Source: an uncultured Oscillospiraceae bacterium
Lineage (GTDB): Bacteria > Bacillota > Clostridia > Oscillospirales > Oscillospiraceae
Length of the DNA: 64,000 nucleotides
NCBI GenBank assembly: GCA_934573855.1
Contig: CAKTMF010000009.1
Location: 12,762 to 76,761, forward strand
Reading direction: 5' to 3'
Below are positions 1,942-62,517 of this stretch, in pieces. The notes beneath the pieces were generated by a model. The model searched no databases. It was not told the DNA's origin and worked only from the letters and a program-made list of their open reading frames with translations. The translations under genes and the position numbers were made by a program. Each line of letters begins with the position of its first letter. Position 1 is the stretch's first letter.

Positions 1942-1949
1942 ATGTAAAC
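1942..1949 (+). repeat. ATGTAAAC core copy of the dispersed motif (acATGTAAACagg)
   Basis: 8-mer core of the TTATGTAAAC family, 19 nt upstream of the DUF853 start codon. Confidence 0.6.
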
Positions 1950-1967
1950 AGGAGGAGAGAGACCCTT

Positions 1968-3599
1968 ATGTATACCGAGAAAAAGATATGGTTGGCACAG
2001 TCCGACAAAAACCTTTTCCTGCTGCCTCAAATGGCGAACCGTCACGGCCTTGTCGCGGGCGCGACCGGCACCGGTAAGACCATCACCATGAAGGTCATGG
2101 CCGAGTCCTTCTCCGATATGGGCGTTCCCGTGTTCCTTCAGGACATCAAGGGCGACCTGAGCGGCATGTGCCAGCCCGGCGCCGAGAGCGACGATATGCG
2201 CCGCCGCGTAGAACGCTTCGGTATCGAGGGCTTTGAGTACAAGTCCTATCCCACCCGCTTCTGGGACATCTTCGGCGAGCAGGGCCATCCCGTCCGCGTC
2301 GCCGTGTCCGAGATGGGCGCGACGCTCCTCGGCCGTCTCCTCGGCCTTACCGAGGTGCAGACCGGCGTTCTGAGCATAGTTTTCAAGGTCGCCGAGGATA
2401 ACGACCTCCTCCTTGTGGACATCAAGGATCTGCGCGCCATGCTCCAGTACGTCGGCGACAACAGGGCGGAGTTCACCACCATGTACGGCAATGTTTCCGC
2501 CGCGAGCGTGGGCGCTATCCAGCGCGCGCTCCTCCAGTTCGAGGAGGAGGGCGGCGAGCAGTTCTTCGGCGAACCCAGCCTTGACATAAAGGACTGGATG
2601 CGCACCGACGCCGACGGCCGCGGATACATCAACATCCTCAACAGCGTCCGCCTTATCCAAAGCCCCACCGTCTACGCGACCTTCCTCCTGTGGATGCTCA
2701 CCGAGCTGTACGAGACCCTGCCCGAGGTCGGCGACCTCGACAAGCCGCGCATGATATTCTTCTTTGACGAGGCGCACCTTCTCTTTGACGACGCGCCCAA
2801 GGCGCTGGTGCAGAAGATCGTCCAGATCGTAAAGCTCATCCGTTCCAAGGGCGTGGGCGTGTACTTCATCACCCAGAGTCCCTCCGACATCCCCAACGAC
2901 GTTCTCGCTCAGCTCTCCAACCGTGTGCAGCACGCACTGCGCGCCTACACCCCCGCCGAGCAGAAGTCTGTCAAGGCCGCGGCAAAGACCTTCCGCGTGA
3001 ATCCCGCCTTCAAGACCGAGGACGCCATCATGGAGCTGGGCGTGGGCGAGGCCCTCGTGAGCTTCCTTGACGCGGACGGTATCCCCACGGTGTGCGAGCG
3101 GGCCTTCATCCTCCCGCCGCAGAGCCTCATGGGACCCGCGCCCGAGGCGAGGATCAAGAGTCTTATCGCCTCCAGCGAGTTCGAGATAAAGTACCGCGAG
3201 ACGATAGACAGAGAGTCCGCCTACGAGATCATCACGCGCGCTGCCGAGGAGCTTGAGCGCACCAGAGCCGAGGAGGCCGCCGCGGAGGCAGCCGAAAAGC
3301 AGCGCCTCAAGGAGGAAGCCGCCGCCGAAAAGCAGCGCCTCAAGGAAGAGGCGGCCGCGGCCAAGGCAGCCGAGAAGGAAAAGAAAAGGAAACAGAAGGT
3401 CGCAAAGCAGGCGACGAACGCCGCGGCGTCCTCCGTCGCCAACGCAGTTACGACCAACTTTGTAAACTCCGTCACCGGCGGCAGGACCACCAGTGCCGCC
3501 ACCATCGCCAAGCGCGCTGCGACCAACGCCCTCAGATCCGTTGCCCGCAGCGGGGCAAACGCCCTCATCGGCGGCCTGTTCGGCGGCAAGAAAAAATAA
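1968..3599 (+). CDS. DUF853 / HerA-like P-loop NTPase (YjgR family) with low-complexity Ala/Glu/Lys-rich C-terminus
   Basis: N-terminus [21 protein letters not shown] has a Walker A motif typical of the DUF853 helicase-HerA-like family. The C-terminal coding region contains a 33-bp tandem repeat ([12 protein letters not shown] x2). Confidence 0.55.
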
Positions 3600-3613
3600 T
3601 AATGTGATGTGAA

Positions 3614-3646
3614 ATCCCGGACGCTCTGCGTCCGGGATATTTTCAT
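3614..3646 (+). terminator. rho-independent terminator (cccggacgc-tctg-cgtccggg + T-run)
   Basis: GC hairpin followed by atatttt directly after the stop codon at 3599. Confidence 0.6.
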
Positions 3647-3708
3647 CGCTGAGGGACAGACGAAAAAACGGCACGGAGCAAGTCCGTACCGTTTTTGCTT
3701 AGTGTGTG

Positions 3709-4035
3709 TTACGCGGGTTCAAAGCTCTTGCCGACCTCGCTGCCCTGCGCGTCGTATTCCACGTTCTCCATTATCGCGGGGTCGACGCGGCTGCGCTTTT
3801 TGATGATGAGTCCCTCGCCCTGCACGTTGAACACCCATATCTTGTAGCCGGGGAACTGCGGGTCGGGCTTCTGGAAAACGCCTGTCTTGTTCAGACGGCA
3901 GAACTTCTCCCTGCCCTCCGCGGTGTCCAGCAGGTCGCCGGGGCCGCTGTAATACAGCTCGTCCTTGTACGCTTCCTCCTTGAACTTCTCCCAGTCGGCG
4001 TCGTCGACCTTCATAACATCGTTGGGTTCTATCAT
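3709..4035 (-). CDS. hypothetical 108-aa protein
   Basis: Clean ORF with an aggaga RBS 9 nt upstream of the ATG and codon usage matching its neighbours. No recognisable family. Confidence 0.45.
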   Translation of the reverse strand: MIEPNDVMKVDDADWEKFKEEAYKDELYYSGPGDLLDTAEGREKFCRLNKTGVFQKPDPQFPGYKIWVFNVQGEGLIIKKRSRVDPAIMENVEYDAQGSEVGKSFEPA

Positions 4036-4107
4036 AATATATTCTCCTGCGTATTCAAGTATTTGACATTAAAATACCATATCCCGCGCAAAAGCGCAAG
4101 CGGTTCG

Positions 4108-5706: not shown

Positions 5707-5787
5707 ATATGTACTCCTTGTTGGTTTCAGCTCATTTTAACACATATCGGGATGAATTAACAGAGCTTTTTCCTGCACTATGTACAG

Positions 5788-5816
5788 TTGCTTTTTTCCG
5801 CGCCGTATCGTATAAT
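5788..5816 (+). promoter_or_regulatory. sigma-A promoter ttgctt-17-tataat for the MATE gene
   Basis: Near-consensus -35 and perfect -10 with a 17-bp spacer, about 28 nt upstream of the RBS. Confidence 0.6.
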
Positions 5817-5843
5817 ACGCAGAGCAAAAAGGGGAGAAAAATA

Positions 5844-7229: not shown

Positions 7230-7233
7230 TTTG

Positions 7234-7244
7234 ATTATGTAAAC
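7234..7244 (+). repeat. ATTATGTAAAC motif copy, followed by variant TTATGTAAAA at 7249-7258
   Basis: Exact 10-mer core just after the MATE stop codon. Confidence 0.9.
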
Positions 7245-7273
7245 TGAATTATGTAAAATCAAAATAAGATATA

Positions 7274-7314
7274 AAAAGGACGGTCGCCGTACATCGCGGA
7301 GACCGTCCTTTTTA
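7274..7314. terminator. bidirectional rho-independent terminator (ggacggtc...gaccgtcc flanked by A-run and T-run)
   Basis: Perfect 8-bp GC stem with aaaaa on one side and ttttt on the other, between the convergent MATE and sdaAA genes. Confidence 0.65.
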
Positions 7315-7326
7315 TATGTTGAATGG

Positions 7327-7337
7327 GTTTACATAAT
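7327..7337 (-). repeat. GTTTACATAAT (reverse complement of ATTATGTAAAC). Forms an inverted pair with the 7234 copy around the terminator
   Basis: Exact 10-mer core, inverted relative to the 7235 copy and about 83 bp from it. Confidence 0.9.
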
Positions 7338-7343
7338 GTGGAT

Positions 7344-8961: not shown

Positions 8962-9684
8962 TCATACCTGCAAAAGCCGCTGCATTTCCCGCCGCAGCTG
9001 GTCGATAATGCGTTTTTCTATGCGGCTTATGTAGCTCTGGGATATGCCGAGGCTGTCGGCCACCTCCTTCTGGGTGTACTCCTTGCCGTCGGCAAGACCG
9101 AAGCGCAGCATTATTATCAGCCTCTCGCGCTCGTCGAGAGAGTTTATAGCCGACATGAGCATCTGCCTCTCGGCGTCGTCCTCAAGCTCCCGGTATGTCT
9201 CGTCCTCGTCCGTACCGAGTATGTCGGACAGAAGAAGCTCGTTCCCGTCCCAGTCGGTGTTGAGCGGCTCGTCGAAGCTCACCTCGGTCCGCTGGGCGTT
9301 TATCTTGCGCAGGTGCATGAGTATCTCGTTTTCAATGCAGCGCGAGGCATAGGTGGCGAGCTTGATATTTTTCCCGGAGTTGAAGGTGTTCACGGCCTTG
9401 ATAAGCCCGATGGTGCCGATGGAGATAAGGTCCTCGATGTTGAGTCCCGTGTTTTCAAAGCGCTTGGCGATGTACACCACAAGGCGCAGATTATGCTCGA
9501 TGAGGAGCCTTCGCGCCGCCTCATCACCGCTGTCGAGCGCGCCTATCGCCTTTTCCTCTCTTTCCTTTTCCAGCGGCGGCGGCAGGGTGTCGCTGCCGCC
9601 TATGTAAAAAACCGGCGGCGGCTCGATCCCGAGTATCGAGAGCAGACTGCTGCGTAAAAACAGGATTTGAGGTTTACATAACAT
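8962..9684 (-). CDS. sigE: sporulation sigma factor E (pro-sigma-E)
   Basis: The pro-sequence and [12 protein letters not shown] junction are nearly identical to B. subtilis SigE (YIGGSEALPPPL). Sigma-70 regions 2-4 are conserved. aaaggag RBS. Confidence 0.85.
9672..9682 (-). repeat. GTTTACATAAC motif copy overlapping the sigE start codon (ATG TTA TGT AAA CC on the minus strand)
   Basis: Exact 10-mer core. The motif supplies codons 2-4 (L-C-K) of pro-sigma-E. Confidence 0.9.
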
Positions 9685-20974: not shown

Positions 20975-21052
20975 GTAAACATAATTATTTAATTTTACAA
21001 TTACGTCCACAAGATTATGTAAATTAAATTATCGGAATAAAATTATGTAAAC
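20975..21052. repeat. cluster of three motif copies in the convergent polC/radical-SAM intergenic region: GTAAACATAAT (20975), ATTATGTAAAT (21014-21024), ATTATGTAAAC (21042-21052). The last two start 27 bp apart
   Basis: Direct reading of an AT-rich 150-bp spacer. Confidence 0.85.
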
Positions 21053-21951: not shown

Positions 21952-22095
21952 CTATTTCCATTCTCCAAATATAAATATTTATTAAGTTCCGTTGCCTGAA
22001 AACGCATAAAGATGTAGAATAAGTATAGCAGGAAAAACCTCAAAATTGAAGAAAAAAGTTACAATTATAAGTCTTGCGAAAAACGTCAAAAACGG

Positions 22096-22124
22096 TTGAC
22101 ATAAATTTTTGCGTGTGTTAACAT
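22096..22124 (+). promoter_or_regulatory. candidate sigma-A promoter ttgaca-17-taacat for the pseudokinase/lectin gene. The -35 and -10 each sit inside a motif-like word (GTTGACATAAAT, GTTAACATAAT)
   Basis: Perfect -35, 17-bp spacer and a 4/6 -10, about 35 nt before the ggaggag RBS. Confidence 0.4.
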
Positions 22125-25425: not shown

Positions 25426-25435
25426 GTTTACATCC
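25426..25435 (-). repeat. GTTTACATCC variant copy (minus strand gGATGTAAACaaATG) spanning the pepF RBS-start spacer
   Basis: 8-mer core ATGTAAAC. Confidence 0.6.
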
Positions 25436-25525
25436 TTTCAATGATTTATTTGGATGGAGACACTATACTACATTTGCGCCGTTATTTCAATCCAATATAT
25501 CCGGACCGAGGAAAAGGAGACAAAA

Positions 25526-29390: not shown

Positions 29391-29399
29391 TTACTGAGA

Positions 29400-29435
29400 G
29401 AGGTTATGTTTACTAAATTATGTAAACATAACCTC
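29400..29435. repeat. perfect 14-bp inverted repeat with an 8-nt loop: gaggTTATGTTTAC-taaattat-GTAAACATAAcctc. It contains one TTATGTTTAC and one TTATGTAAAC copy
   Basis: Seen directly. Lies 10 bp after the SBP stop codon. Confidence 0.9.
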
Positions 29436-29457: not shown

Positions 29458-29468
29458 TTATGTAAACC
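29458..29468 (+). repeat. TTATGTAAACC motif copy, about 50 bp upstream of the -35 of the methyltransferase promoter
   Basis: Exact core. Confidence 0.9.
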
Positions 29469-34595: not shown

Positions 34596-36935
34596 ATGCA
34601 GCCTACAATGTGTTCACGCTGCGGTAAAAACGTAGCCGTGATCTTCATAACGAGGATCGAAGCGGGCCAGACAAAGAACGAAGGCCTGTGTCTCAAATGC
34701 GCCCGCGAGCTTCACATTAAGCCCGTGGACGACGTGATAAATAAAATGGGCATTTCGGACGAGGACCTTGACAGCCTTTCCGGCGACATGATGAACGCGC
34801 TCTCCGGCGTCGAGGATATCATGCCCACCGACGAGGACGAGAGTGAGGACGACGACGGCAAGACCGCGACCTTTCCCTTCCTCAACAGGCTCTTCGGCGG
34901 TCCCGCCGCAGCAGGCGGCGCCCAGAATGAAAATCAGGAGCGGCCGAAGAACGACGCTCCCGGCACTGCCCCGGCCGCGCCCAAGACGCCCAAGCGCAAG
35001 TATCTTGACAACTACTGCATTGACCTGACGGCGCGCGCCAAGGCCGGTAAGCTCGACAGCATGATCGGCCGTGAGGAGGAGCTTGAGCGGGTCATACAGA
35101 TACTCAACCGCCGCCAGAAAAATAACCCCTGCCTCATCGGCGAGCCGGGCGTCGGCAAGACCGCCATCGCCGAGGGGCTTGCCCAGCGTATCGCCATGGG
35201 CAATGTTCCCTATAAGCTTCAGGATAAGCAGGTATTTCTCCTTGACCTCACCGCGCTCGTGGCCGGGACGCAGTTCCGCGGCCAGTTCGAGAGCCGCATG
35301 AAGGGCCTCATCGAGGAGATACGCAAGCAGGGGAACGTCATCCTCGTTATCGACGAGGTGCATAATATAGTCGGCGCAGGCGACGCCGAGGGCAGCATGA
35401 ACGCTGCCAATATTCTCAAGCCTGCTCTTTCAAGGGGAGAGATACAGGTCATCGGCGCCACCACCTTTGCCGAGTACAGGAAGCATATCGAAAAGGACTC
35501 CGCACTCGAGCGCCGCTTCCAGCCCGTCACCGTCGGCGAGCCGTCCATTGACGACAGCATAAAGATCATCCGCGGCATTGCCCACTACTACGAGGATTAC
35601 CATCAGGTACACATCTCCGACGAGATGTGCCGTCAGGCTGTCCTGATGTCCGAGCGCTATATCACCGACCGCTTTCTCCCCGACAAGGCCATCGACCTCA
35701 TCGACGAGGCCTGCTCCGACGTCAATCTCAAGGACTCCGGGATCACCCGCCGCATGGAGGCGGAGCGGGATCTTGAAAACGTATGCTTCGAGCGGGAGGT
35801 GCTCATGTCCGACGGCGGGTCTGCGGGGACCGAGCTTACCGAGGAGCAGCTCGACATGCGCTATGCCCGTATCGCCGAGCTTCGCAGCAAGGAAATACAG
35901 CTGCGCTCCGAGATAGACCAGCTCAAGGCCAAGGGCCGGCCGGAGCTTACGCAGGATAACCTCGCCCGCATTATCGAGCTGTGGACCAAGATCCCCGCTT
36001 CCACCATCTGTCAGGATGAATTTGACCGTCTCGCGAGGCTTGACGAACGCCTCAAGACCCACATCGTCGGGCAGGACGAGGCGGTGGAGGCCGTCTGCGC
36101 CGCCATCAAGCGCAGCCGCGTCGGACTCAAGACCAAGCGCAAGCCCGTGAGCTTTATCTTTGTGGGCGGCACGGGCGTTGGCAAGACGGAGCTTGTAAAG
36201 CGCCTTGCCGCCGACATGTTCGACTCGCCCGAATCACTCATTCGCCTTGACATGTCCGAGTTTATGGAGAAATTCTCCGTCTCGCGCATAATCGGCTCGC
36301 CTCCGGGCTATGTCGGCTATGACGAGGCCGGTCAGCTCACCGAGAAGATACGCCGTAAGCCCTACTCGGTCGTGCTTTTTGACGAGATAGAAAAGGCTCA
36401 TCCCGACGTGATGAACATTCTCCTTCAGATACTTGACGACGGCCGCATCACCGACGCTCAGGGCAGAGTCGTGAACTTCGAAAACACCGTCATCGTCATG
36501 ACCACCAACGCCGGCAGCAACAGCAAGTCCGGCAGCGTGGGCTTCGGCGGCTCTCTCGGCGACATGAGCCGTGAGCGCACCATGAAGGCGCTCAACGAAT
36601 TTCTCCGCCCAGAGTTTATAAACCGCGTGGATGAGGTCATCTGCTTCAACCAGCTGACCGAGGAGAATTTCCGCGCCATCGCCGCCATCATGCTCGGCGA
36701 GGTGAGGGACGCCATGGCCGAGCGGAACATCACCGTTGCGTGGGACGAGAGCGTCATTGACCATCTTGTCAGGGAAGCCTATTCCGTCACCTACGGCGCG
36801 CGTAATCTCCGCCGCACCATCCAGAAGCAGATCGAGGACGAGATAGCCTCTCAAATCGTTGACAGGCACGGAGAAAATATTAGTTATGTAAACCTCTCTG
36901 CCGCCGACGGAAAGATAAAGGTAGAAATAAACTGA
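34596..36935 (+). CDS. Clp/Hsp100 double-AAA+ ATPase (ClpA/ClpC class) with an N-terminal ClpX-type C4 zinc ribbon instead of Clp_N repeats
   Basis: CSRCGK...CLKCAREL zinc ribbon. An acidic linker. D1 [17 protein letters not shown] short middle region. D2 [19 protein letters not shown] ClpP-docking loop (SGSVGFGG). Confidence 0.8.
36884..36894 (+). repeat. TTATGTAAACC motif copy inside the 3' end of the Clp ATPase gene (encodes S-Y-V-N-L)
   Basis: Exact core. Confidence 0.9.
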
Positions 36936-38787: not shown

Positions 38788-38880
38788 ATTATGTGAATTA
38801 CAATATGTAAACCAAATTATGAAAATAAAAATATGTAAACCAAAACTTCCCGGACGGGATCCTGTTCTGGTTTACATAAT
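38788..38880. repeat. motif cluster: ATTATGTGAA (38788), TATGTAAACC (38804), TATGTAAACC (38832, 27 bp after the previous copy), and inverted GGTTTACATAAT (38869-38880). The last two pair into an imperfect hairpin of about 15 bp around a cccg-gac-ggg mini-hairpin
   Basis: Direct reading of the convergent intergenic region. Confidence 0.9.
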
Positions 38881-38896
38881 TTATTTTATGCTCTTT
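38869..38896 (-). other. dif: candidate dif / Xer recombination site: minus strand AAAGAGCATAA-AATAAA-TTATGTAAACC (11-6-11)
   Basis: The right arm equals the Firmicute XerD arm TTATGTAAAC. The left arm ends in GCATAA like the E. coli XerC arm. The palindromic inner CATAA-N6-TTATG framework is present. It is the only motif copy in the window with this full architecture. Confidence 0.4.
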
Positions 38897-39443: not shown

Positions 39444-39453
39444 GTTAACATAA
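39444..39453 (-). repeat. GTTAACATAA (reverse complement TTATGTTAAC), T-variant motif copy between the two minus-strand genes
   Basis: Seen directly. Confidence 0.7.
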
Positions 39454-39505: not shown

Positions 39506-40123
39506 TTATTCTTCTTCCGTGACGGCGGCGATCTCCGTGACGGACACCTCGAACGCGGTCCTTTCGACCGAGCCGTATTCCGTCAGCTTTATGTAGTGCC
39601 GGCTCTGGAGCCTTCCGCTGAGCTGCACCTGCGTCCCCACGCCCCACAGGCAGACCTGCTGCGCCTGCCGGCCCCAGCATATACACGGCAGATAATCCGA
39701 GCGGCTGTAGCTCCTGTTGACGGCCAGCATAAGGTCGCAGATATCCCTGCCCATCGGCGTGGTGCGCAGGTTGGGGAGTTTACATAATGTTCCACGCAGC
39801 ATGACGAGGTTGCTGTCCTCATCGTCGCAGAAGTAAAGCTCTCTCGCGAACACGGTTATCACGAGCTTCGCGCCCTCTCCGCGGCGATTGTTGAAGGTCC
39901 GCACCTGCCCGATAACGCAGAGCTTCTCGCCCTCGTGCCCCTGAAGCTCCGGCAGCTGGCTCCGGCGCACTATCACGTTCAGCGTGTCGAAGTTTCCCGA
40001 CAGGCGCTCCACCTCAAGCTGAAAGGTGTAGAATTCCTGCGAGCGGCTGAGATGGGAAAAAACGGGGCTGCCGGCCATTGTCCCGCACAGCTTCGTGTAG
40101 TTGTTTTCGGTGTTCATGTCCAT
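39506..40123 (-). CDS. SSB-like protein with two tandem OB folds
   Basis: C-terminal half aligns to bacterial SSB (LAVNR, CICWGRQAQ vs CVTWRRQAE, GRLQSRHY vs GRLQTRNY, ERTAFEVSVTEI). The N-terminal half is a second divergent OB fold. No acidic SSB tail. Confidence 0.6.
   Translation of the reverse strand: MDMNTENNYTKLCGTMAGSPVFSHLSRSQEFYTFQLEVERLSGNFDTLNVIVRRSQLPELQGHEGEKLCVIGQVRTFNNRRGEGAKLVITVFARELYFCDDEDSNLVMLRGTLCKLPNLRTTPMGRDICDLMLAVNRSYSRSDYLPCICWGRQAQQVCLWGVGTQVQLSGRLQSRHYIKLTEYGSVERTAFEVSVTEIAAVTEEE
39778..39788 (-). repeat. GTTTACATAAT motif copy inside the SSB-like gene (encodes T-L-C-K-L on the minus strand)
   Basis: Exact core. Confidence 0.9.
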
Positions 40124-42867: not shown

Positions 42868-44004
42868 ATGGAAAGTATAACTGTCGAAAAGCGCGGTCTG
42901 CGCAGCTTATATAGGCTCTGCCCGAAGCGCCACGTCCTGCTGCTCATAAGCGTGGCGCTCATATTGCTGCACCTTGCGGCACGGGGGAATAAGGCTCTTA
43001 TGGTCTCCCTCTCGGGACGCTTCGTGCAGCCGCTCCACCATGCCCTCGCAAAGCTCAATTCCCGTGTGCCGTTTTCCGTGGCGGAGCTTATCTGGGCGCT
43101 GGGCGTGATAGCAGCCGCGGTTTACATAATTTCACAAATTATTTTGCTTTTCTTGAGAAAAGACCGGCTGAAACGAGTTTACATAATTTTTATAACTGTT
43201 CTCTCGATCGCGGCGTTCATCTATGCTATGTTCTGCATGCTGTGGGGAACGTACTATTACGGCGACGATTTTCAGAGCCGCAGCGGGATAGAGTCGAGGG
43301 ACATATCCGCCGAAGAGCTGGCCGCGGTGACGGAGTATTTTGCCCTGCGCGCGAACGAATATGCCGACATGGTGATGCGCAATGAGGACGGGTTCTATGT
43401 CTGCGACCGGGAAGCTATACTTGCGCGCTCCGACGAGGTCTTTGACGCGGTGGTCGAGGATTACCCCAGCCTTGACGGGCCGAGGGTCCGTGCCAAGGGG
43501 ATATTTTTCTCGCGCGTGATGAGCTACACGAATTTTACGGGCTTCTTTTTCCCGTTCACGGCCGAGGCGAATGTGAATACCGATTTTCCGCCGGCGCTCT
43601 TTGCCTCCACGGTGGCGCATGAGCTTTCGCACCAGAGGGGCGTTGCAAAGGAGCAGGAGGCGAATTTCACCGCCGTTCTGGCGAGCCTATATTACGGCGA
43701 CACGGATTACTGTTATTCGTCCTGTCTGCTTGCGTATGTGCATTTGGGCAACGCGCTGTACAGGGCGGATCACGCGGAGTGGGAGCGCGTGTACGGCCTG
43801 CTTGACGAGCGTGTGGTGAAGGATTTTGCGCTCGACACCCATTATTGGCGGCAGTTTGACACCCCCGTGCAGACGGTCAGCAATACGGTCTATGAGGGCT
43901 TCCTCCAGAGCTACGATCAGAAGCTCGGCATGCGGAGCTATGGAGCGTGCGTCGATCTCCTCGTGAATTACTATTATGGGGAAGCAAAGAATTTCTTGGA
44001 GTAA
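42868..44004 (+). CDS. DUF3810-family membrane-anchored HExxH (zincin-like) protein
   Basis: Two N-terminal TM helices, conserved TVAHELSHQRG motif, 378 aa. Confidence 0.65.
   Translation: MESITVEKRGLRSLYRLCPKRHVLLLISVALILLHLAARGNKALMVSLSGRFVQPLHHALAKLNSRVPFSVAELIWALGVIAAAVYIISQIILLFLRKDRLKRVYIIFITVLSIAAFIYAMFCMLWGTYYYGDDFQSRSGIESRDISAEELAAVTEYFALRANEYADMVMRNEDGFYVCDREAILARSDEVFDAVVEDYPSLDGPRVRAKGIFFSRVMSYTNFTGFFFPFTAEANVNTDFPPALFASTVAHELSHQRGVAKEQEANFTAVLASLYYGDTDYCYSSCLLAYVHLGNALYRADHAEWERVYGLLDERVVKDFALDTHYWRQFDTPVQTVSNTVYEGFLQSYDQKLGMRSYGACVDLLVNYYYGEAKNFLE
43120..43189 (-). repeat. two direct copies of GTTTACATAATTT (43120-43132, 43177-43189), 57 bp start to start, inside the TM-coding part of the DUF3810 gene (each encodes V-Y-I-I)
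   Basis: Exact 13-mers seen directly. Confidence 0.9.
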
Positions 44005-49450: not shown

Positions 49451-49461
49451 TTATGTAAACC
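49451..49461 (+). repeat. TTATGTAAACC motif copy in the divergent yhhN/tmk promoter region, next to a gcgcgaa...ttcgcgc hairpin
   Basis: Exact core. Confidence 0.9.
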
Positions 49462-50286: not shown

Positions 50287-50506
50287 CTCAATATTCCGCA
50301 GAGCGCGAAAGAGCGCGGAATACGGCTGCGACGAGGCCCTCGCGCAGATAAAAGAGGGGAGCGCCTACGCCGCGGAGCATGATTATGACCCTGATATGCT
50401 CCACTGCAAGGGCTGTATCTACGCCTGCGCGTTTTCAAAGGCACGCTGCGATACCGGAAGGAAAGCCGTCCCTGTCCTGGCGGCCAAGAAGAATAGTAAA
50501 ATGTAA
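50276..50506 (+). CDS. small Cys-rich hypothetical protein (76 aa), translationally coupled to the upstream gene
   Basis: ATGA overlap with the upstream stop. CDEAL...HCKGCIYACAFSKARC cysteine pattern. The stop codon lies inside a motif copy. Confidence 0.35.
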   Translation: MKADSIFRRARKSAEYGCDEALAQIKEGSAYAAEHDYDPDMLHCKGCIYACAFSKARCDTGRKAVPVLAAKKNSKM

Positions 50507-50526
50507 ACCAAATTATGTTAACATTA
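50501..50526 (+). repeat. ATGTAAACC copy followed by the T-variant ATTATGTTAACATTA (near-palindrome), then the hairpin atcatgaccg-N14-cggtcatgat (50526-50559)
   Basis: Seen directly, upstream of the sbcD promoter. Confidence 0.85.
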
Positions 50527-51759: not shown

Positions 51760-54700
51760 GACCGATAAAACTTACGCTCTCCGCGTTCGGCCCCTACGCG
51801 GGGAGGACGGTGCTGGAGCTTGACAGGCTTGGCGAGAGCGGGCTGTATCTCATCACCGGCGATACCGGCGCGGGAAAAACGACCATTTTCGACGCCATAA
51901 CCTACGCGCTCTACGGCGAGGCAAGCGGCGACAGCCGCGACCCGGGAATGCTTCGCTCAAAATACGCCTCTCCCGACACCCCGACCGAGGTCGAGCTTGT
52001 TTTTTCAAGCGGCGGAAAGGTCTATACCGTCCGCCGTAACCCTGAGTATCAGCGTCCAAAGACCCGCGGTGAGGGCTTCACCCTGCGCCGAGCCGAGGCG
52101 GAGCTTATCTGCCCGGACGGACGCGTCGTGACAAAAACCAAGGACGTCACCGACGCCGTGCGCGGTATCCTCGGCATAGACCGCAGACAGTTTTTACAGA
52201 TAGCGATGATAGCGCAGGGCGATTTCCTGAAGCTCCTTCTTGCGCCCACCGAGGAGCGTAAGGCGATATTCCGCCAGCTCTTCAAGACGGAGCCGTACCG
52301 CCGGCTTCAGGACGAGCTGAGGACGAAGACCGCCGCGCTCAGCCGCCGGTGCGCCGAGATCGGCGCAAGCGTCAGGCAGTACACGGACGAGATAGACTGC
52401 GCCGCTGAAAGCCCCCTGTACGAGGAGCTGACCGAGGCAAAGGCCGGGCGCATGCCGGCAGGCGAGACGCTTGGACTCATCGCGCGCGTGATCGGGCAGG
52501 ATGAGCGCCTATCGGATGAAATGAGCCGCGAGATAGACACCCTTGAGGAGCGGCTCAGAGATATACACGCCCGCCTGCGTGAGAACGAGAAGAATGAAAG
52601 ACTTCGTGAGGGACTTGCGGCAAAGCTCGCGGAGCTTGAGGAGAAAAAGGGCGGGCTTGAGCGCTCGTCGGCCGCGCTGAAGGCGGAGCGGGACAAGCGG
52701 CCGCGCGCGGCGGAATACGCCGCTGAGCTGGCGCTTCTGGAGAGCAGGTCCGGCGAGTACGAAAAGCTTGCGGAGCTGAACGGAGATATACATAAGCTCT
52801 CGGCGCAGCTCGATTCCGATACCGGGGAGCTGCGCAGGACCGACTCCGCCATTGCGGAGAGACGTGAGAGCGCGGCGCGGCTGCGCACAGAGGGGCAGGA
52901 GCTTGCCTCCGCGGGCGAGGATGTCCAGCGCCTGAGCGCGGAGAGAGACAGAGCCGAGGCGGAGCGGGAAATGCTCAGCGAATATCTCGCCTGCCGGGAA
53001 CGGCTCGACGGGGCGGAGAACGCCCTGAACGCCGCGCGCGAGGCTTACGAGGCACTCAGGCCGAAAGAGGACGAGCTTGAAGAGCTTAAGACGGAGACGG
53101 CAAAGCTTGAAGCGGAGCTTCCGTCCTACGCGGAGCTTGAGAATATCACGGCCGGAGCGAACACGTCGAAGGAAAGGCTCCGCGCCGCCGAAACCGCCCT
53201 TGAGCTGAAAAAGCGGGAATACGAGTCGGCCGGGACCCGCCTTGCCGCGTGCAGGGCTGAGCTTGACGCGCTCAAAAACGCCGCGGCAGATGTGGAAAGG
53301 CTCACGCGTGAGAAGGAGACGGCGGAGCGACGCCTATCGGCCCTGCAAAAGCTTGAGGAGGACGCTGCGGAGCTTGACGGGCTTGCCGTGCTGCTCGAGA
53401 AAAAACAGGCCGGCTTCCTGCTCGCCGGTAAAACGGCGGATGAGCTGCAAATAGATTATGTAAACCTAAATAAGGCTTTCCTCGCGGCGCAGGCCGGAGT
53501 CCTTGCCTCCGCGCTCCACGATAACGAGCCGTGTCCCGTATGCGGCTCCCTGAGCCATCCGCACCCGGCCGCGATCCCTGCGGAAGCGCCGGGCGAGGAC
53601 GAGCTGAACGCCCTGAGGGACGAGAGCGCCGCGGCACAGGAGGAGCTGCGCCGGATAAGCGCGGAGTGCGCCGCCGTTAGAACACGAAAGGACGCCAAGG
53701 AGAGCGCGCTGAATGCCGCCCTCGCGGATATCGCCGCCGTGCGTGAGGATGTCCCGCGGCTCACCGCCGAAACAGAGAGAGCGATACACGCTCTTTCCGA
53801 GCGGATAAGCGCCGCGAACGCAAGGGACGAACGCCGTCAGGAACTCGCCGCCGGGCTTCCCGCGCTTGAGGAGAGAGCGGCCGCGCTCGCAGCGGAGCAG
53901 GGCGAGCTTGAAAAGACCCGTGCGGCCGAAAGCGCGTCGCTTGCCGCACTTGATGAGCGCCGTGCCGCGCTGTGCGGGCGTCTGCGCTGTGCAAACGGTG
54001 ATGAGGCGCGGCGTGAGCTTCGCGCCCTGAACGACGGGCGTGACCGGCTCACTAAAACGCTTGCCGCCGCGCAGGAGGCGTTCGATTCCTGCCGTGACGG
54101 CTATACCGCTGCCTCCTCCGCCTGTACACAGGCAGAAAGACGTCTGCGCGCGGGGCTTGTGACGGATGCGGACGCAGACGCTTTCAGGCCCGCCGCGACA
54201 GAGCTGCACAGAAAAACGCTTGAGAAAATAAGCGCTCTTGCGCGTGATATTGCCGCCGCGGAGGAAAGGGCCGTGCGTAAGGCCGGGACCGAAAAGCTCC
54301 TGCGTGAGACGGAGGAGGAGCTGAGTACGCTCTCCGGGACAAGGGAAGCGCTGAGCGGAGCCGTGCAGTTCAACTCCTCGCGGCTCGCCGAAATGCGCCG
54401 CCGCGTACAGGAGCTGGCCTCCTCGCTGCCGTTCCCGGACGGCGGGTCCGCACGGGCAAGAGCGAAAGAGCTTGCCTCCCTGACCGAGAGCATGAAGGCC
54501 GATCTGGAGCGTGCCGAGCGCGAGCATGGGCAGCTTGAAAGGGCGGTGTCCGCGCTCTCGGGCGAGACGGACGGACTGATAGCACAGCTCGCGGACGCGC
54601 CGGAGCTTGACGCGGCGGCGGAGACGGCAGAGCGGGAGCGCACGGAGACCTTGCGCGCGGAGCTGAGACAAAAAAAGCAGACCGTCGACAGCCGTATCCA

Positions 54701-56581: not shown

Positions 56582-56756
56582 TTCGCAAAGACCTCACACA
56601 TATATAGCTCGTATATTATAGTTAACTTTGTCGTATAAAGCAAGAGCGGAGATGATAATTAATAAATCCTCAGATATAAAAAGGCAAAAATACACTTTTA
56701 TTTTACACCGCGTCAATGTATAATAAACCGAGATATACAAGAGGAGCGGTGTACAT

Positions 56757-58670: not shown

Positions 58671-60145
58671 AAAGGGAATTTCGTGAAATGCTCTCCGAGC
58701 GCGGACGCCGGGATATGCCGGGCGTCCTTCTCGCCTCGGCCGAATGCGCTCCTCTTTCAAAGACGGGGGGCCTCGCGGACGTGGTCGGCACGCTGCCAAA
58801 GTCCCTGAAAAAGCTCGGGATAGACGCGCGCGTCATCACGCCGTACCATCGCTGCATAAAGGACAGATACTCCGGACAGACGGAGCATATGTTCCATTTC
58901 GACGTACATCTCGGCTGGCGCACGCAGTACGCCGGGATAGAAAAGCTCGTGCTGGACGGCGTGACGGTCTACCTTGTGGACAGCGAGTACTACTTCGGCG
59001 ACAGGATATACCGCGGAGGACTCGCGGAGGGAGAGCAGTACGCCTTCTTCTGCCGTGCCGTTCTCGAGGCGCTGCCGGGACTTGATTTCGAGCCGGAGGT
59101 CGTCCACTGCAACGACTGGCACACCGCCATGCTGCCCATGCTTGCGCGCACCCAGTATCAGGGGCGCATGCAGGAGAGCCGGCGCTATCTCCTCACCATC
59201 CACAATATCGCCTTCCAGGGCAAGTTCGGATTTGATTATGTTCAGGACCTTTTGGGCGTGGATGCGCGCTACTATACGCCCGAGTTCATGGAGCTCAACG
59301 GCTGCGCGGACTTCCTCAAGGCCGGCTGCGTCTTTGCCGACAGGATAAATACCGTCTCTCCCAGCTATGCCGAGGAGATAATGACCCCCTATTACGCCGA
59401 GGGACTGGAGGGTATACTCAACGCCCGCCGCGCTCAGGTCTCGGGGATAATCAACGGTATCGACAAAACGCTGTTCAACCCGCATACCGACCCGCTTCTC
59501 CCGGCACGCTACGACCGCGGACACCTGCGCGGCAAGGCAGTGTGCAAGAGCGAGCTTCAGGAGCGGATGGGGCTTGAGGTGCGCGCGGACGTCCCGCTCA
59601 TCGCCATGGTCACGCGCATGACGGAGCAGAAGGGCTTCGATCTAGTCGCGCGCGTCATCGACGACCTGATGGGGAACGACGACGTTCAGTTCATGCTGCT
59701 GGGGTCGGGAGACGAGCGCTTTGAGAATATAATGCGCGCCACCGAGGGTCGCTACAGGGGGCGGCTGTGCGCCTATATCGGCTACAGCGAGCCGCTCTCC
59801 CACCTCGTCTATGCCGCGAGCGACTTCTTCCTCATGCCCTCGCGCTTTGAACCGTGCGGGCTGAGCCAGATGATCGCCATGCGCTACGGCTCTCTCCCCA
59901 TCGTCCGCGAGACCGGCGGACTGAGAGACACCGTCGCGCCCTACAATAAATATACTGGAGAGGGCAACGGCTTTTCCTTCGCCAACTTCGACGCCTACGA
60001 AATGCTGGGCGTCATCCGCTCGGCACTCGGCTGCTACGGCGACAGAGAGATAATGCGCGGACTCATCAGCCGCGCCATGCAGGCGGACTACGGCTTTGAC
60101 GGCTCTGCGGAGGAATACGCGAAGCTATACATATGGATGCTGTAA
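58667..60145 (+). CDS. glgA: glycogen synthase (ADP-glucose type, GT5)
   Basis: KTGGLADVVGTLP motif and E-x7-E region. ATGA overlap with glgB. The alternative starts at 58688 and 58715 are possible. Confidence 0.85.
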   Translation: MKREFREMLSERGRRDMPGVLLASAECAPLSKTGGLADVVGTLPKSLKKLGIDARVITPYHRCIKDRYSGQTEHMFHFDVHLGWRTQYAGIEKLVLDGVTVYLVDSEYYFGDRIYRGGLAEGEQYAFFCRAVLEALPGLDFEPEVVHCNDWHTAMLPMLARTQYQGRMQESRRYLLTIHNIAFQGKFGFDYVQDLLGVDARYYTPEFMELNGCADFLKAGCVFADRINTVSPSYAEEIMTPYYAEGLEGILNARRAQVSGIINGIDKTLFNPHTDPLLPARYDRGHLRGKAVCKSELQERMGLEVRADVPLIAMVTRMTEQKGFDLVARVIDDLMGNDDVQFMLLGSGDERFENIMRATEGRYRGRLCAYIGYSEPLSHLVYAASDFFLMPSRFEPCGLSQMIAMRYGSLPIVRETGGLRDTVAPYNKYTGEGNGFSFANFDAYEMLGVIRSALGCYGDREIMRGLISRAMQADYGFDGSAEEYAKLYIWML

Positions 60146-62517
60146 AAGAGAGAATCTATAAAATATATTTCGGCGGCAGCTACCGCGAGTGCTGGTCGGA
60201 GGATTATACCCTCTCCATCGCCTATGAGGGGCGCAAATGCGCCGAGGCTGCCTTTACAGACGGAAAATGGCATGCCGTGGGCGGGGACGGTGAGCTTGCG
60301 GCCCTGCTCGAGTCGGCGGACTGCCCGCCGCTCACGCGGCTTTATTTTGAGGCCGCCGCCTCGGCCTACGACGGAGCGCAGGAGTGCCTGCGCCGCGGGC
60401 TTGAGCTTTCAAAAATGTACGAGTGCTTCTGCGGCAACTCGAACGCGCTCATCGCGCCGGAGCTTATGCGCCTTCTGATGGACGACTGCGGCTTCCCCAT
60501 GGGCGCGGCGTATGACACGGTCTCGTGCTGCTGCGGCGACCTGCGCTCGCCGGGGATAGACCTCCACGCGCTTTACGCCCTCCAGCCCCGCACCGCCCAT
60601 GTGGCGGGCATACTGCGCGAGACGTCTCAGGAGCGGCCTGCGGCGGAGCATGACTCGGCGGACGCACGCTTCCGCAGCCCGACGGGAGCCGTGGAGTGCG
60701 GGGAACAGATACGCCTGAGCGCGCGCATACGCGGCGGCAGGGTGAAGAAGGTCACTCTCGTCGTCGAGGGCGACGAGCTGCACACGGAGATCGAGACCGA
60801 GCGGGACGGGGACGTCTGGAGCGTCGTGCTTGCGTGTCCGGAGACTCCTGCCGCACTGTGGTATCATTTCAGGATAGAGACCGACCACAGCTCGCACTGG
60901 CTCTGCCCGGACGAGGGCGGACACCGCGGGCGGCTGTACGGGAGCGAGAGCGCGGGCTTTCGCCTCACGGTGCATTGCAGGGACTTTGAGACCCCCGCGT
61001 GGTTCCGCCGCAGCGTCATGTATCAGATATTTCCCGACCGCTTCGCCTTCAGCGCCGACGGCACGGCGGAGCGGGGGATAGAGTACCACCGCGCGCTGCA
61101 CCAGACGCCGGAGCTGCACAAAAGCCTTGACGAGCCGGTGAGATACCTGCCCCGCCCGTTTGAGACGAGCTACTCGCCCGACGATTTCTACGGCGGAACG
61201 TTCAAGGGAATAGAGAGCAGGCTACCTTATCTGAGCGCGCTGGGCGTGAGCTGCATTTACCTCAACCCCATCTGCGAGGCCCGCTCCAACCACCGCTACG
61301 ATACCTCGGACTATTTAAGACCTGACCCGATACTCGGCACGGAGCGGGACTTTGAGGAGCTGTGCGCCGCCGCGGCCGCGATGGGTATACGCATTATATT
61401 GGACGGCGTGTTTTCACACACCGGAGCGGACAGCACATACTTCAACCGCTATGGGCATTACCCGGACAGCGGCGCGTGTCAGGGGCCGTCCTCGCCCTAT
61501 TTCGACTGGTACGATTTCAAAAGGTTCCCGGATGAGTACCGCTGCTGGTGGGGCTTCCGCGACCTGCCTGAGGTGAACGAGGGAAACGGGAGCTGGCAGG
61601 ATTTCGTCATAACCGGGGAGAGCAGCGTTGTGCGTACATGGCTGCGCCGCGGGGCGTCCGGCTGGCGGCTTGACGTGGCCGACGAGCTGCCCGACGAGGT
61701 GCTGGGCCTTATCCGCGCCGCGGCGAAAAGGGAAAAGCCCGACGCGCCCATAATCGGCGAGGTCTGGGAGGACGCGGTGACGAAGGAGAGCTACGGCGGC
61801 AGACGCAATTACGCGCTGGGCTTCTCGCTCGACTCGGTGATGAACTATCCGTTCCGCGCGGCGGCGCTGGACTTCATTCACGGGCGGATAAACGCCTGCG
61901 GGATGAGGGATTTTCTCATCTCCCAGCAGCAGAACTACCCGAAGCCGCTCTACTATTCGCTCATGAACCTTCTCGGTACTCACGATGTGGACAGGCTCCG
62001 CACGGCGCTCTCGACAAAGACCGTCATACGCGGCCTGAGCCGGGAGCAGCAGCTCGCCCTGCGCTTCACGGACGAGGCGCTCGAGCGCGCGGTGAAGCTC
62101 GAAAAGCTCTGCGCGGCGATACAGTTCTCCATACCCGGCGTGCCAAGCATATACTACGGCGACGAGCAGGGGATGTGCGGCGTGTCGGACCCCTTCAACC
62201 GCGAGCCGTTTCGCGAGGGGACGCCGGAGTTGCACGACTATTACGCCTATCTCGCGCACCTGAGGAGTGAAAATCCGGCTCTCTCCACGGGCGAGGCCGT
62301 GTTTGGGGCCGCCGGTGCGGGCGTGCTTACGATATTGCGTTATGTAAACCACAGTAAGGATGCGTTCGGACTTGACGCCGAAAACGGCGCGTTTCTGACC
62401 GTTATAAATATCGGCGCACAGGACGCGGAGGTGAGTGTGGACTGCTCTGCCGCGGGCTGCGGCATGTACCGCGGAAAAATCGAAGGAGAAGGCACAAAAA
62501 TAGTTAGGTTAAGATAG
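60133..62517 (+). CDS. GH13 family alpha-glucan hydrolase (neopullulanase/amylopullulanase-like catalytic module) with an unusual Cys-rich N-terminal domain of about 170 aa
   Basis: GH13 regions I-IV: DGVFSH, GWRLDVADE, EVWE, LLGTHDVDR. The N-terminal domain has 12 Cys including CFCGNSN and SCCCGDL. Confidence 0.8.
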   Translation: MDAVKERIYKIYFGGSYRECWSEDYTLSIAYEGRKCAEAAFTDGKWHAVGGDGELAALLESADCPPLTRLYFEAAASAYDGAQECLRRGLELSKMYECFCGNSNALIAPELMRLLMDDCGFPMGAAYDTVSCCCGDLRSPGIDLHALYALQPRTAHVAGILRETSQERPAAEHDSADARFRSPTGAVECGEQIRLSARIRGGRVKKVTLVVEGDELHTEIETERDGDVWSVVLACPETPAALWYHFRIETDHSSHWLCPDEGGHRGRLYGSESAGFRLTVHCRDFETPAWFRRSVMYQIFPDRFAFSADGTAERGIEYHRALHQTPELHKSLDEPVRYLPRPFETSYSPDDFYGGTFKGIESRLPYLSALGVSCIYLNPICEARSNHRYDTSDYLRPDPILGTERDFEELCAAAAAMGIRIILDGVFSHTGADSTYFNRYGHYPDSGACQGPSSPYFDWYDFKRFPDEYRCWWGFRDLPEVNEGNGSWQDFVITGESSVVRTWLRRGASGWRLDVADELPDEVLGLIRAAAKREKPDAPIIGEVWEDAVTKESYGGRRNYALGFSLDSVMNYPFRAAALDFIHGRINACGMRDFLISQQQNYPKPLYYSLMNLLGTHDVDRLRTALSTKTVIRGLSREQQLALRFTDEALERAVKLEKLCAAIQFSIPGVPSIYYGDEQGMCGVSDPFNREPFREGTPELHDYYAYLAHLRSENPALSTGEAVFGAAGAGVLTILRYVNHSKDAFGLDAENGAFLTVINIGAQDAEVSVDCSAAGCGMYRGKIEGEGTKIVRLR
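62340..62350 (+). repeat. TTATGTAAACC motif copy inside the GH13 gene (encodes R-Y-V-N-H)
   Basis: Exact core. Confidence 0.9.

Follow-up and report, generated by a model that had tools for sequence, protein, structure and literature searches.

The locus and its recurrent word

The window, i.e. the whole 64-kb stretch of DNA analysed here, harbours among others genes for HerA, a MatE protein, serine dehydratase, pro-sigmaE, a radical-SAM protein, PepF, a solute-binding protein, ClpC, an SSB-like protein, a DUF3810 protein, SbcD, SbcC and a GH13 protein. It is interspersed with the 10-mer TTATGTAAAC, of which 14 exact copies (8 on the plus and 6 on the minus strand) are found at precisely the coordinates and strands that an earlier note on this DNA had listed (Table 1). 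The expected count amounts to 0.05 in dinucleotide shuffles, not one of which gave even 3 copies, and to 0.03-0.17 under Markov models of orders 0-4; the recomputed enrichment is ~100-500-fold over chance, in round terms some 300-fold, rather than ~1000-fold as claimed before, and the GC content of the window is 58.2% and not ~63%. Allowing for at most one mismatch yields 24 sites versus 1.07 expected, and the 8-mer ATGTAAAC occurs 19 times versus 0.62 expected. The near-copies reported earlier are also in place, namely ATGTAAAC at 1942, 25426, 38805, 38833 and 50501, TTATGTTAAC at 22117, 39444 and 50513, and TTATGTTTAC at 29404 and 20975. The resulting density is one exact copy per ~6 kb, or one per 2.7 kb when variants are counted.

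The sites share the consensus (A-rich 6 bp)-TTATGT[A>T,C]AAC-[C/T], in which position 7 is the sole tolerant position of the word (A15, T5, C3, G0), and the flanks outside the word differ from copy to copy. Among the 14 exact copies, nine carry a terminal CC; the previously counted twelve are reached only if near-copies are included. Intergenic DNA has a GC content of 44% and coding DNA one of 60%, so that AT-rich stretches inside a GC-rich genome might be thought to generate the word by composition alone. The probability of such a chance or compositional artefact is negligible, since it is refuted in both compartments: six exact copies lie in 5.6 kb of intergenic DNA, where 0.02-0.06 are expected, and eight within coding sequences, where the expectation is 0.03.

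Table 1. Copies of the word and related features in the window
Feature	Position	Strand	Context
ATGTAAAC + TTATGTATAC (1966-1975)	1942..1975	+	ATGTAAAC abuts HerA RBS; TTATGTATAC spans HerA start codon (1968)
Exact word	7235..7244	+	5 bp past MatE stop; left arm of inverted pair around bidirectional terminator
Near-copy TTATGTAAAA	7249..7258	+	14 bp on from copy at 7235
Exact word	7327..7336	-	Right arm of inverted pair with 7235; downstream of serine dehydratase gene
Exact word	9672..9681	-	Codons 2-4 of pro-sigmaE (ATG TTA TGT AAA CC = M L C K P)
14-bp-period array: TTATGTAAAT, one degenerate unit, exact TTATGTAAAC	21014..21052	+	
ATGTAAAC	25426..25433	-	Between RBS and start of pepF
Terminator hairpin	29396..29435	+	After solute-binding-protein gene; stem = TTATGTTTAC (29404) + exact word (29418)
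Exact word	29458..29467	+	40 bp beyond copy at 29418, just past hairpin
Exact word	36884..36893	+	In ClpC, S-Y-V-N, residue 763
14/28-bp-period array	38788..38845	+	Two ATATGTAAACC copies (38803, 38831) + degenerate units
Complete dif/XDS-like site	38869..38896	-	AAAGAGCATAA-AATAAA-TTATGTAAACC; XerD arm = exact copy at 38870
Near-copy TTATGTTAAC	39444..39453	-	3 bp 5' of RBS of gene after SSB-like gene
Exact word	39778..39787	-	In SSB-like gene, L-C-K, residue 113
Two exact copies, 57 bp apart	43120..43186	-	In DUF3810 gene; coding strand GTT TAC ATA A = V-Y-I
Exact word	49451..49460	+	Divergent intergenic region, YhhN / thymidylate-kinase-like genes
AATGTAAACC then TTATGTTAAC, starts 12 bp apart	50501..50522	+	Directly 5' of terminator-like hairpin preceding sbcD
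Exact word	53456..53465	+	In sbcC, D-Y-V-N, residue 572
Exact word	62340..62349	+	In GH13 gene, R-Y-V-N, residue 736

Arrangement between genes

Between genes, the copies are either placed as inverted pairs that flank or extend terminators, or lined up in arrays of 14-bp period, such arrays being found in the window as well as in locus L266. The stem of the 7235/7327 inverted pair has a folding energy of -45 kcal/mol (z -7.4) and the 29396..29435 hairpin one of -26 kcal/mol (z -8.3), while the exact copy at 38870 also forms a hairpin with 38831. The last copy of the 21014..21052 array overlaps the stop codon of the minus-strand radical-SAM gene. Direct pairs, formerly described as spaced by 27 bp, start in fact 28 bp apart with a degenerate copy in between, which amounts to a 14-bp period, and at 7249..7258 strain L123 is shorter by the loss of precisely one such unit of 14 bp.

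A promoter role, which had also been proposed, holds for two near-copies and for no other site: those at 22095 and 22117 constitute the -35 and -10 elements of a strong sigma-A-type promoter and may not belong to the word family at all. A transcription-factor operator, e.g. the TGTAAACC inverted repeat of the BirA type, would be expected with fixed spacing in front of the genes of a small regulon and does not fit, as the sites are single, direct or variably spaced and many are intragenic or located at 3' ends. Read at the RNA level, UUAUGUAAAC just 5' of terminator hairpins would be a protein or RNA binding site in the 3'-UTR, the target being the complementary GUUUACAUAA pair of the DUF3810 mRNA. 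In accordance with this, 11-12 of the 14 exact window copies are sense to the gene containing or preceding them, inverted pairs place the forward word 5' of the hairpin in both directions of transcription, and the DUF3810 sites appear on the mRNA as the reverse complement. Such an element is nevertheless highly improbable, given that direct arrays are located after terminators, that most copies in L258 are antisense to their genes, that no Rfam family matches, and that the DUF3810 region is devoid of a fold signal (z -0.7).

Constraint at the DNA level

The eight in-gene copies are confined to compatible reading frames. Among nine peptides compatible with the word, seven are actually encoded by it, with rare codons, against 0.067 predicted from codon usage. 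In the ClpC region around residue 763, the residues at the copy differ from those in 15 relatives, and by this comparison ClpC has altered amino acids to hold a copy. In sbcC, the flanking codons differ among strains and the word does not. Judged from sequence, the word is a DNA-level signal and not a coding by-product, because of the codon test, the ClpC change and the conservation in the sister species described below; the same three results reinforce the earlier point that the variety of frames speaks against a cause at the protein level.

Conservation and differences among relatives

Strains show zero SNPs inside the words. In the sister species, which is 83.1% identical overall at the nucleotide level, 49 of 50 word bases are kept compared with 220 of 300 flanking bases (73%; P=0.001), and at the GH13 copy (62340) TTATGTAAAT is read at the same position. 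Similarly, words are kept and flanks are variable in the L221 group. Essentially no word is present in relatives at ~75% nucleotide identity (3 x 21 kb) or in 77 other loci. A comparison of closely related strains had been proposed as a check, and its outcome, retention in strains and sister species and absence from the ~75% relatives, favours function; as far as these alignments reach, evolution preserves the word. Moreover, the DUF3810 pair is conserved at the nucleotide level in every homologue examined, in species at 43-97% protein identity, including species without further copies in 5-21 kb.

Word clusters coincide with synteny breakpoints relative to L129, and the ecfT-truA intergenic region carries an array in L242 that is absent from the window. 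Together with the 14-bp indel polymorphism, the word-hairpin-reverse-word cassettes of window and phages, and a Y1_Tnp-like gene adjoining DUF3810 in L332 and L333, these observations would suit a REPIN- or MITE-like mobile element, in which the word is the terminal inverted repeat around a GC-rich hairpin centre moved by a Y1 (RAYT/IS200-like) or other transposase, and single words are decayed remnants. The hairpin-making inverted pairs at convergent gene ends, accompanied by singletons, likewise resemble REP/REPIN. This explanation is decidedly unlikely, however, since 8 of 15 exact copies lie in genes and have arisen by substitution with the length unchanged, sequence beyond the word is not conserved between copies, target-site duplications were not seen, and the 90 kb examined contain no transposase. 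The resemblance to a REP/BIME-type element suggested earlier lacks support on similar grounds: unlike in REP/REPIN-RAYT systems, the unit of 11-17 bp is not palindromic, more than half of the exact copies sit in genes, and a RAYT gene is absent from the 90 kb examined.

Relation to Xer sites

In a 28-bp dif site, one Xer monomer occupies 14 bp, and the XerD arm of Bacillus subtilis dif is TTATGTAAACT. The sequence TTATGTAAAC(C/T) is identical over 11 of 11 bases to the XerD arm of published dif sites, including TTATGTAAACC, which bears out the identity with the Firmicute XerD arm that had been claimed; some proteobacterial dif sites have the same XerD arm. In addition, the one tolerant position of the word corresponds to dif position 24, which is reported to be variable in XerD arms.

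XDS are typically few in number and terminus-proximal. In Bacillus subtilis and S. aureus they are XerD sites that unload SMC-ScpAB near the terminus (Karaboja et al. 2021, as summarised in PMC9226527 and PMC11840125). Next to the arm, their definition requires a degenerate centre of 5-6 bp and then an inverted copy of the innermost five bases of the arm (CATAA), and they are bound by XerD without the need of XerC (PMC9226527). The word shares with XDS the bona fide XerD arm TTATGTAAAC(T/C), the occurrence of several copies in one chromosomal region, its proposed use without XerC and without recombination, and, at one of 24 sites only (38869-38896), the full CATAA-N6-arm layout. Unlike XDS, it lacks the inverted five-base partner at the other 23 sites, occurs once per 3-6 kb with many copies inside genes, forms 14-bp tandem arrays and is not accompanied by a skew switch. 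A position matrix over the 24 sites likewise yielded no partner arm. The scan for the full layout that singled out 38869-38896 also detected proper XDS-like sites in a Peribacillus locus. Since a XerC-type arm is missing at 23 of 24 sites, those sites cannot recombine.

Identity with dif, i.e. a single-copy XerC arm, 6 bp and a XerD arm at a skew switch, was ruled out, as the copies are half-sites apart from one dif-like 28-mer (38869-38896), where no skew switch is found. Neither a skew switch nor a reversal of polar motifs occurs in 80 kb, and GC and AT skew stay weakly positive throughout; hence, by local criteria the locus does not look like a terminus. With 9 copies on the plus and 6 on the minus strand (n=15) across one replichore, the word lacks strand skew, and a polar word of the Chi or KOPS type was discarded too. 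No xer gene is present in the 90 kb examined.

A candidate protein-docking signal

On present sequence evidence, the best reading, to which we assign a rough probability of 0.38, is that the copies are half-sites for a XerD-type protein in an architectural, non-recombining role. The word would be a recognition site that is read on DNA by a sequence-specific protein and kept by selection or biased conversion, the most parsimonious reader being XerD, or a lineage-specific protein with XerD-arm specificity, on isolated half-sites. As in the case of the XerD-only XDS of Bacillus, which unload SMC complexes, these half-sites might act architecturally, possibly as loading, unloading or roadblock points on the chromosome, sited mostly at gene ends around terminators and sometimes in 14-bp-period arrays. 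We infer both the identity of the binder and the effect of binding. The earlier note had listed several readings and settled on none of them; they are borne out in part.

The XerD reading is favoured by the enrichment, the DNA-level constraint and the conservation in the sister species, by the arm identity with its matching degeneracy, by the one full CATAA-N6-arm site, by the XDS-like sites in Peribacillus, by the XerC-independent binding of XerD to XDS, by the 14-bp arrays in the window and L266, and by the presence of the word also in other Clostridia and in phages. It is opposed by the missing CATAA partner that defines XDS, by a density far above usual XDS numbers, by the local skew, by the lack of a xer gene in the 90 kb examined, and by the patchiness of the word, which is absent from the ~75% identity relatives, the 77 other loci and the nearest cultured phages. 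Because XerD is nearly universal, XerD alone cannot explain this patchiness.

Whichever protein reads it, the word is probably an undescribed protein-docking signal, and no prior description was found in the literature. Genomes rarely keep short words in dense supply; the known cases, Chi, KOPS, uptake sequences and HIP1, have each revealed a basic DNA-handling mechanism, and we know of no such word in Clostridia. If XerD or a relative indeed reads half-sites, a recombinase would have been recruited as a dense chromosome-organising factor, well beyond the few XDS of Bacillus; if the word instead signals uptake or self, no earlier case would be known from Gram-positives. It is also of practical use as a marker for contig binning and phage-host linking in gut metagenomes.

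Occurrence in other Clostridia and phages

Other gut Clostridia are rich in this word, as are some of their viruses: unrelated Oscillospiraceae contigs and virulent Firmicute phages both carry it at high density. The word-dense lineages span a GC range of 0.30 to 0.67, which is easier to reconcile with a conserved reader than with an arbitrary lineage-specific word. The virulent phages have 19-24 copies in 9-14 kb, and the closest cultured phages have none.

This distribution bears on an uptake-signal-like drive, in which a competence receptor would prefer DNA containing the word and conspecific transformation would spread it, as for Neisseria DUS and Pasteurellaceae USS. The DUS-like behaviour suggested earlier was indeed recovered: like DUS/USS, the word has 10-12 non-palindromic bases and is strongly over-represented over 90 kb on both strands, in genes and terminators, without replication skew. 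Within genes it occupies tolerant frames and variable protein segments and is paid for in amino-acid changes, a pattern displayed by the co-evolution of USS/DUS with proteomes (PMC2817400). Furthermore, its inverted pairs form terminators, it is common to strains and the sister species and missing from more distant relatives, and dprA lies in the region. Uptake-driven spread is a live rival, if a rather unlikely one. dprA, the only competence gene seen near the word, is widespread in non-competent bacteria, the host is a Gram-positive spore-former, and the density is lower than that of DUS/USS. A literature search returned no sequence-specific uptake in Gram-positives, and to our knowledge none is known. 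Moreover, uptake words are arbitrary in sequence and diverge into dialects, whereas the word is the same in unrelated lineages and is neither clade-specific nor rare in phages and foreign DNA; its abundance in virulent phages is not predicted by uptake bias, nor does the DUF3810 pair in species without other nearby copies fit this model.

Alternatively, the reader might be a lineage-specific protein other than Xer, such as an abundant nucleoid-associated or insulator protein, or the word might mark DNA as self for a defence system or a nuclease; in either case its agreement with the XerD arm would be coincidental or convergent. The patchiness among close relatives, the cultured relatives of word-rich phages that lack the word, the benefit that phages could gain by copying a self or organiser signal of the host, and the 14-bp arrays, which suggest cooperative DNA coating, are in line with this. 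We consider it rather unlikely, as an 11/11 identity with matching degeneracy would hardly arise by chance, a Chi- or KOPS-like strand skew is absent, and no candidate gene emerged, with not a single phage ORF having a homologue in the word-rich bacterial DNA compared.

A doubtful but more far-reaching reading is that some gut Clostridia and the virulent phages infecting them share a genome-marking system of isolated XerD-arm half-sites. Phages would copy the word (one together with parS) so that their DNA is handled as host chromosome, e.g. for carriage into spores or escape from SMC-type surveillance; to the host it would be a dense chromosomal signal, serving either the handling of the chromosome or the marking of DNA as self or for uptake, and the nucleotide-conserved DUF3810 pair would go back to an ancestral site for that reader. 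Judging from the phage copies, viruses of gut spore-formers may have a new way to exploit host chromosome machinery. One word-rich phage also contains five parS-like sites, which lends support to the XerD reading; phi29 is known to use host parS/Spo0J (PMC2731898). Like phi29 with its parS sites and 0A boxes (PMC2731898), the word-rich phages bear many host-type chromosomal sites; unlike phi29 with its five parS sites, they hold the word at 19-24 copies per roughly 10 kb. The hairpins of the phage cassettes have ~80% GC within genomes of 30% GC.

Abundance and form of the word

The decamer TTATGTAAAC occurs 14 times in the window, eight times on the plus strand and six times on the minus strand, precisely at the sites which the earlier note had reported. 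Since dinucleotide shuffles predict 0.05 copies and Markov models of order 0-4 predict 0.03-0.17, a chance origin is excluded or unlikely. Sites with at most one mismatch number 24 (1.07 expected), while the core ATGTAAAC is found 19 times (0.62 expected); the GC content of the window is 58.2% instead of the approximately 63% claimed before. Alignment of the 24 sites yields a motif comprising an A-rich stretch of 6 bp, roughly AnTAAR, followed by TTATGTAAAC and by C or T, with no conservation further out. Position 7 of the word is the sole position that tolerates single substitutions (A15, T5, C3, G0). We found no description in the searchable literature of this 10-mer, or of its complement, as a word that recurs in a genome.

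In general, we regard the word as a selected protein-recognition word with a probability of roughly 0.85. After the exclusions presented here, we are left with a word in DNA on which selection or drive acts, whereas the identity of its reader and its function are what we infer. The source organism is an uncultured, spore-forming human-gut bacterium of the Oscillospiraceae group, the ClpC of which shares 81% identity with that of the nearest species representatives.

Features of the word and its genomic contexts (positions refer to the window unless another locus is named)
Feature	Location	Details
Gene content	window	spoIIGA-sigE; pyrH-frr-uppS-dxr-rseP-ispG-polC cluster; infC-rpmI-rplT; clpC; sbcCD
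L-C-K frame	sigE codons 2-4; SSB-like gene	
Y-V-N frame	ClpC, SbcC, GH13	
V-Y-I frame	DUF3810, twice	
F-T-stop frame	radical SAM gene	
DUF3810 pair	43120-43186	two GTTTACATAA copies, 57 bp apart, in frame; first transmembrane region
Inverted word pairs	7235/7327, 29404/29418, 38831/38870	flank or extend intrinsic terminators
14-bp-period arrays	7235/7249, 21014-21051, 38788-38845	strong alternating with degenerate units
Synteny breakpoints versus L129/L130	7220-7235, 29394-29587, 38435-38886	
Metagenome contig L258	cobalamin genes	11 word copies in 14.7 kb
Metagenome contig L266	aro operon	10 word copies and 13-unit array, 14-bp period
Metagenome contig L242	between ecfT and truA	5 word copies
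Metagenome contig L213	housekeeping DNA	dispersed word pattern
Metagenome contig L342	aro operon, Pseudoflavonifractor-like organism	6 exact and 7 one-mismatch copies in 12.2 kb
Low-GC Herelleviridae-like phage family	L433, L380, L446, L441, at least 8 further viral loci	cassettes between most early genes

Copies inside genes

Eight exact copies reside inside genes, where 0.03 would be expected, and they are confined to frames devoid of premature stop codons. Peptides that the word could spell occur nine times in 19,495 codons, and seven of these nine do use the word, whereas codon usage predicts 0.067, a value so low because TTA accounts for 1% of Leu codons, GTA for 9.5% and GTT for 11% of Val codons. 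Moreover, the ClpC copy is situated in a variable C-terminal segment, and 15 ClpC relatives feature different residues at this position (e.g. SIAM or KISI versus SYVN) at unchanged length. Given the rare-codon excess and the ClpC residue changes, we agree with the earlier note that protein constraint is excluded or unlikely as the cause of the word: the constraint acts on DNA and not on protein.

Intergenic copies

Six exact copies and about ten near-copies fall within the 5.6 kb of intergenic DNA, mostly directly past stop codons. The terminator scan was too noisy to put a figure on the tie between word and terminators. The word clusters at 7.2, 29.4 and 38.8 kb coincide with synteny breaks relative to the nearest species (L129/L130), in which ordinary terminators without the word occupy the matching junctions. 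A drive resembling that of uptake signals, by which the word would spread, accounts for the terminator pairs as well as for the coding-frame behavior, but it leaves unexplained the copies in phages, the DUF3810 pair and the fact that different lineages share the word; we hold it to be unlikely. Classical REP elements and known RNAs are likewise excluded or unlikely as an explanation, and no known RNA family was found.

Some copies had also been placed at promoters. This holds for near-copies 22095 and 22117, which are explained by the hexamers of a strong sigma-A-type promoter (22096-22124, TTGACA-17-TAACAT with TG) mimicking the reverse word, but elsewhere no consistent -35/-10 geometry exists, and a promoter role thus fits just these two near-copies. 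At 25426-25436, a near-copy that follows the ribosome-binding site and precedes the start of pepF creates a start-stop mini-ORF (ATG TAA).

Extended region and replication polarity

By means of conspecific metagenome contigs the region was extended to 89.8 kb, which contains 15 exact copies. Confinement of the word to 7-62 kb seemed likely after the first extension, as 25 kb of flanks held no exact copy, but was overturned by an exact copy inside trmFO at about 77 kb; hence, the word is not limited to a single small island. On the plus strand, GC and AT skew remain weakly positive over the whole extended region, which thus constitutes one replichore without terminus signature. The terminus/dif hypothesis was rejected upon finding no reversal of GC skew, AT skew or SRS/KOPS/Chi-type motifs in 80 kb, and Chi/KOPS-type polarity is excluded or unlikely as an explanation of the word.

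At the left end (21-1732), comparison with L122, L124 and L125 shows that a gene of the AMP-binding (acyl-CoA synthetase-like) type is broken into two ORFs in the window and in some strains, whereas other strains have it in one piece (571-574 aa). Left of the window, beside a resolvase gene, lies a strain-variable region (L339 277-2918 versus L340 1-6568), which in one strain holds a module of integrase, sigma-like and HTH genes, as is typical for the end of a conjugative transposon, and in the other MgtE, nitrilase and NUDIX genes.

Conservation in strains and relatives

Absence from close strains, which would have argued against a conserved motif, was not observed: the word is kept in 14 conspecific loci and in a sister species. 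The conspecific loci show zero SNPs in any word copy, and the sole change is a 14-bp deletion in one strain (L123) that fuses two tandem copies (7235-7258) and removes exactly one array unit, which suggests slippage or unit-wise recombination. The sister species (GCA_964587485.1), 83.1% identical over 17.6 kb, retains all five word positions of this stretch, with 49/50 word bases identical versus 220/300 flanking bases (P=0.001). At about 75% nucleotide identity, relatives have zero copies in three 21-kb syntenic loci, and 77 further loci contain at most two each. Word dialects were rejected, as the leading 10-mers in 80 related loci stem from protein repeats, CtsR boxes or unrelated REP-like hairpins. 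A related Oscillospiraceae MAG (L138 4547-16145) features a GC-rich hairpin repeat of REP-like type, GGCGGCGGGG...CCCCGCCCTACG, which is unrelated to the word and occurs six times in 16 kb.

An unrelated lineage-specific reader would fit the patchy distribution of the word and is the least improbable of the alternatives, though still doubtful; the recurrence of the same word in very different genomes is best explained by a conserved reader.

The conserved pair inside DUF3810

The metagenome matches of the word include three homologues of the window DUF3810 gene; further homologues were picked by protein search, and their choice is thus unbiased by the DNA pattern. In four more species (81, 68, 65 and 64% identity), wherever V-Y-I occurs at these positions it is spelled GTTTACATAA, as is the case at 15/15 such sites in eight species. 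The pair is identical at synonymous sites across homologues of 43-97% protein identity (window, L218, L245, L318, L329, L331, L332, L334), while third codon positions of the adjoining conserved residues vary freely, and the four added species possess no other word copy in 5-21 kb around the gene. With V-Y-I always spelled alike, neighboring third positions free and no other copies nearby, the pair stands by itself as an old element at the level of the nucleotide sequence, and it also provides the strongest argument for a conserved reader outside the word-rich lineages. In L331, an extra third copy, inverted, replaces a conserved Pro. No papers on DUF3810 were found. In a related species (L332 4339-4755, L333 6227-6643), a 138-aa Y1_Tnp (IS200/RAYT-like) ORF, assigned by Pfam at 25.6 bits (cut-off 23), is located between rplT and DUF3810.

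Other bacterial genomes and phages

A metagenome scan for two word copies 18-48 bp apart gave at least 120 matches. Among those listed, GC ranges from 0.25 to 0.68, and many reflect repeats, in proteins or in tandem, or true dif-like arrays (L267, L300), while in several contigs (L258, L266, L242, L213, L342) the word is dispersed through housekeeping DNA as it is in the window. A role of the word at the RNA level is contradicted by antisense copies in L258, and we consider it very improbable. A plasmid iteron or partition reading of the L266 array was rejected, since the plasmid collection contained nothing that matched this array. In the L342 operon, GTTGACATAA-(T/A)4-GGAGG directly precedes cistrons (3830, 5115, 5884), and the reverse word embeds the stop codon of the upstream cistron.

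The viral scan revealed at least 12 contigs of GC 0.27-0.32 with 5-24 copies each. These are real phages encoding portal, terminase, sigma factor and homing endonucleases, and among cultured phages those of Enterococcus of the Herelleviridae type come closest to them, with about 50% identity. Almost all copies are intergenic, organized in cassettes that precede sigma-A-type promoters and consist of word(s), GC-rich hairpin with T tract and reverse word(s); the hairpins reach about 80% GC in 30% GC genomes. REPIN-like mobility is consistent with such cassettes but inconsistent with intragenic copies; we judge it improbable. A phage-encoded reader was rejected, because homologues of the phage ORFs are absent from the word-rich bacterial DNA examined and the word is missing from the nearest cultured phages (zero copies in Enterococcus phage H1). 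Phage L441 carries five parS-like sites, including two perfect ones, a feature reminiscent of phi29, in which spore entrapment relies on host Spo0J/parS (PMC2731898).

Relation to Xer, dif and XDS

The 11-mer, TTATGTAAAC plus C/T, equals the XerD arm of published dif sites (Myxococcus ...TTATGTAAACT, Syntrophus ...TTATGTAAACC), which bears out the likeness to a Firmicute-type XerD arm noted earlier; it likewise matches the dif arm of B. subtilis. Position 7, which tolerates substitution, corresponds to dif position 24, reported as one of two variable XerD-arm positions and adjoining an invariant A.

In XDS, the XerD-only sites at which SMC is unloaded in Bacillus, the arm is described as being followed by a 5-6-bp center and then by its own five innermost bases in inverted form (PMC9226527; PMC11840125). 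Such a layout is present in the window at 38869-38896 alone (AAAGAGCATAA-AATAAA-TTATGTAAACC), in a 400-bp spacer of convergent genes, so that the other 23 of the 24 sites lack a defining feature of XDS. Since no skew switch occurs there, this 28-mer is probably not a true dif. In a locus from Peribacillus, the same scan detected a pair of proper XDS-like sites (L204 16939 and 18010; CATAA/AATAA-N5-TTATGTAAACT), 1 kb apart in inverted orientation.

Most simply, the word may be read by a XerD-type protein. Our preferred, albeit tentative, reading, to which we assign less than even odds, is that the copies are half-sites with an architectural and non-recombining role: the protein would sit on isolated half-sites, organizing rather than recombining. 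This reading is favored because the arm match is exact and the degeneracy corresponds, because one complete site exists (38869-38896), because the 14-bp array period is half of dif, and because of the recurrence in very different genomes.

Complete dif-like sites of the type AGGTCCGATAA-GTGATA-TTATGTAAACC occur nine times in about 1.2 kb of an element classed as viral (L267 264-1396, L463 9111-10243), resembling pdif-module arrays. In L300 (8482-8672), repeated perfect palindromes, GGTTTACATAA-ATATAT-TTATGTAAACC, consist of two XerD-type arms and resemble sites of a Xer system with a single recombinase.
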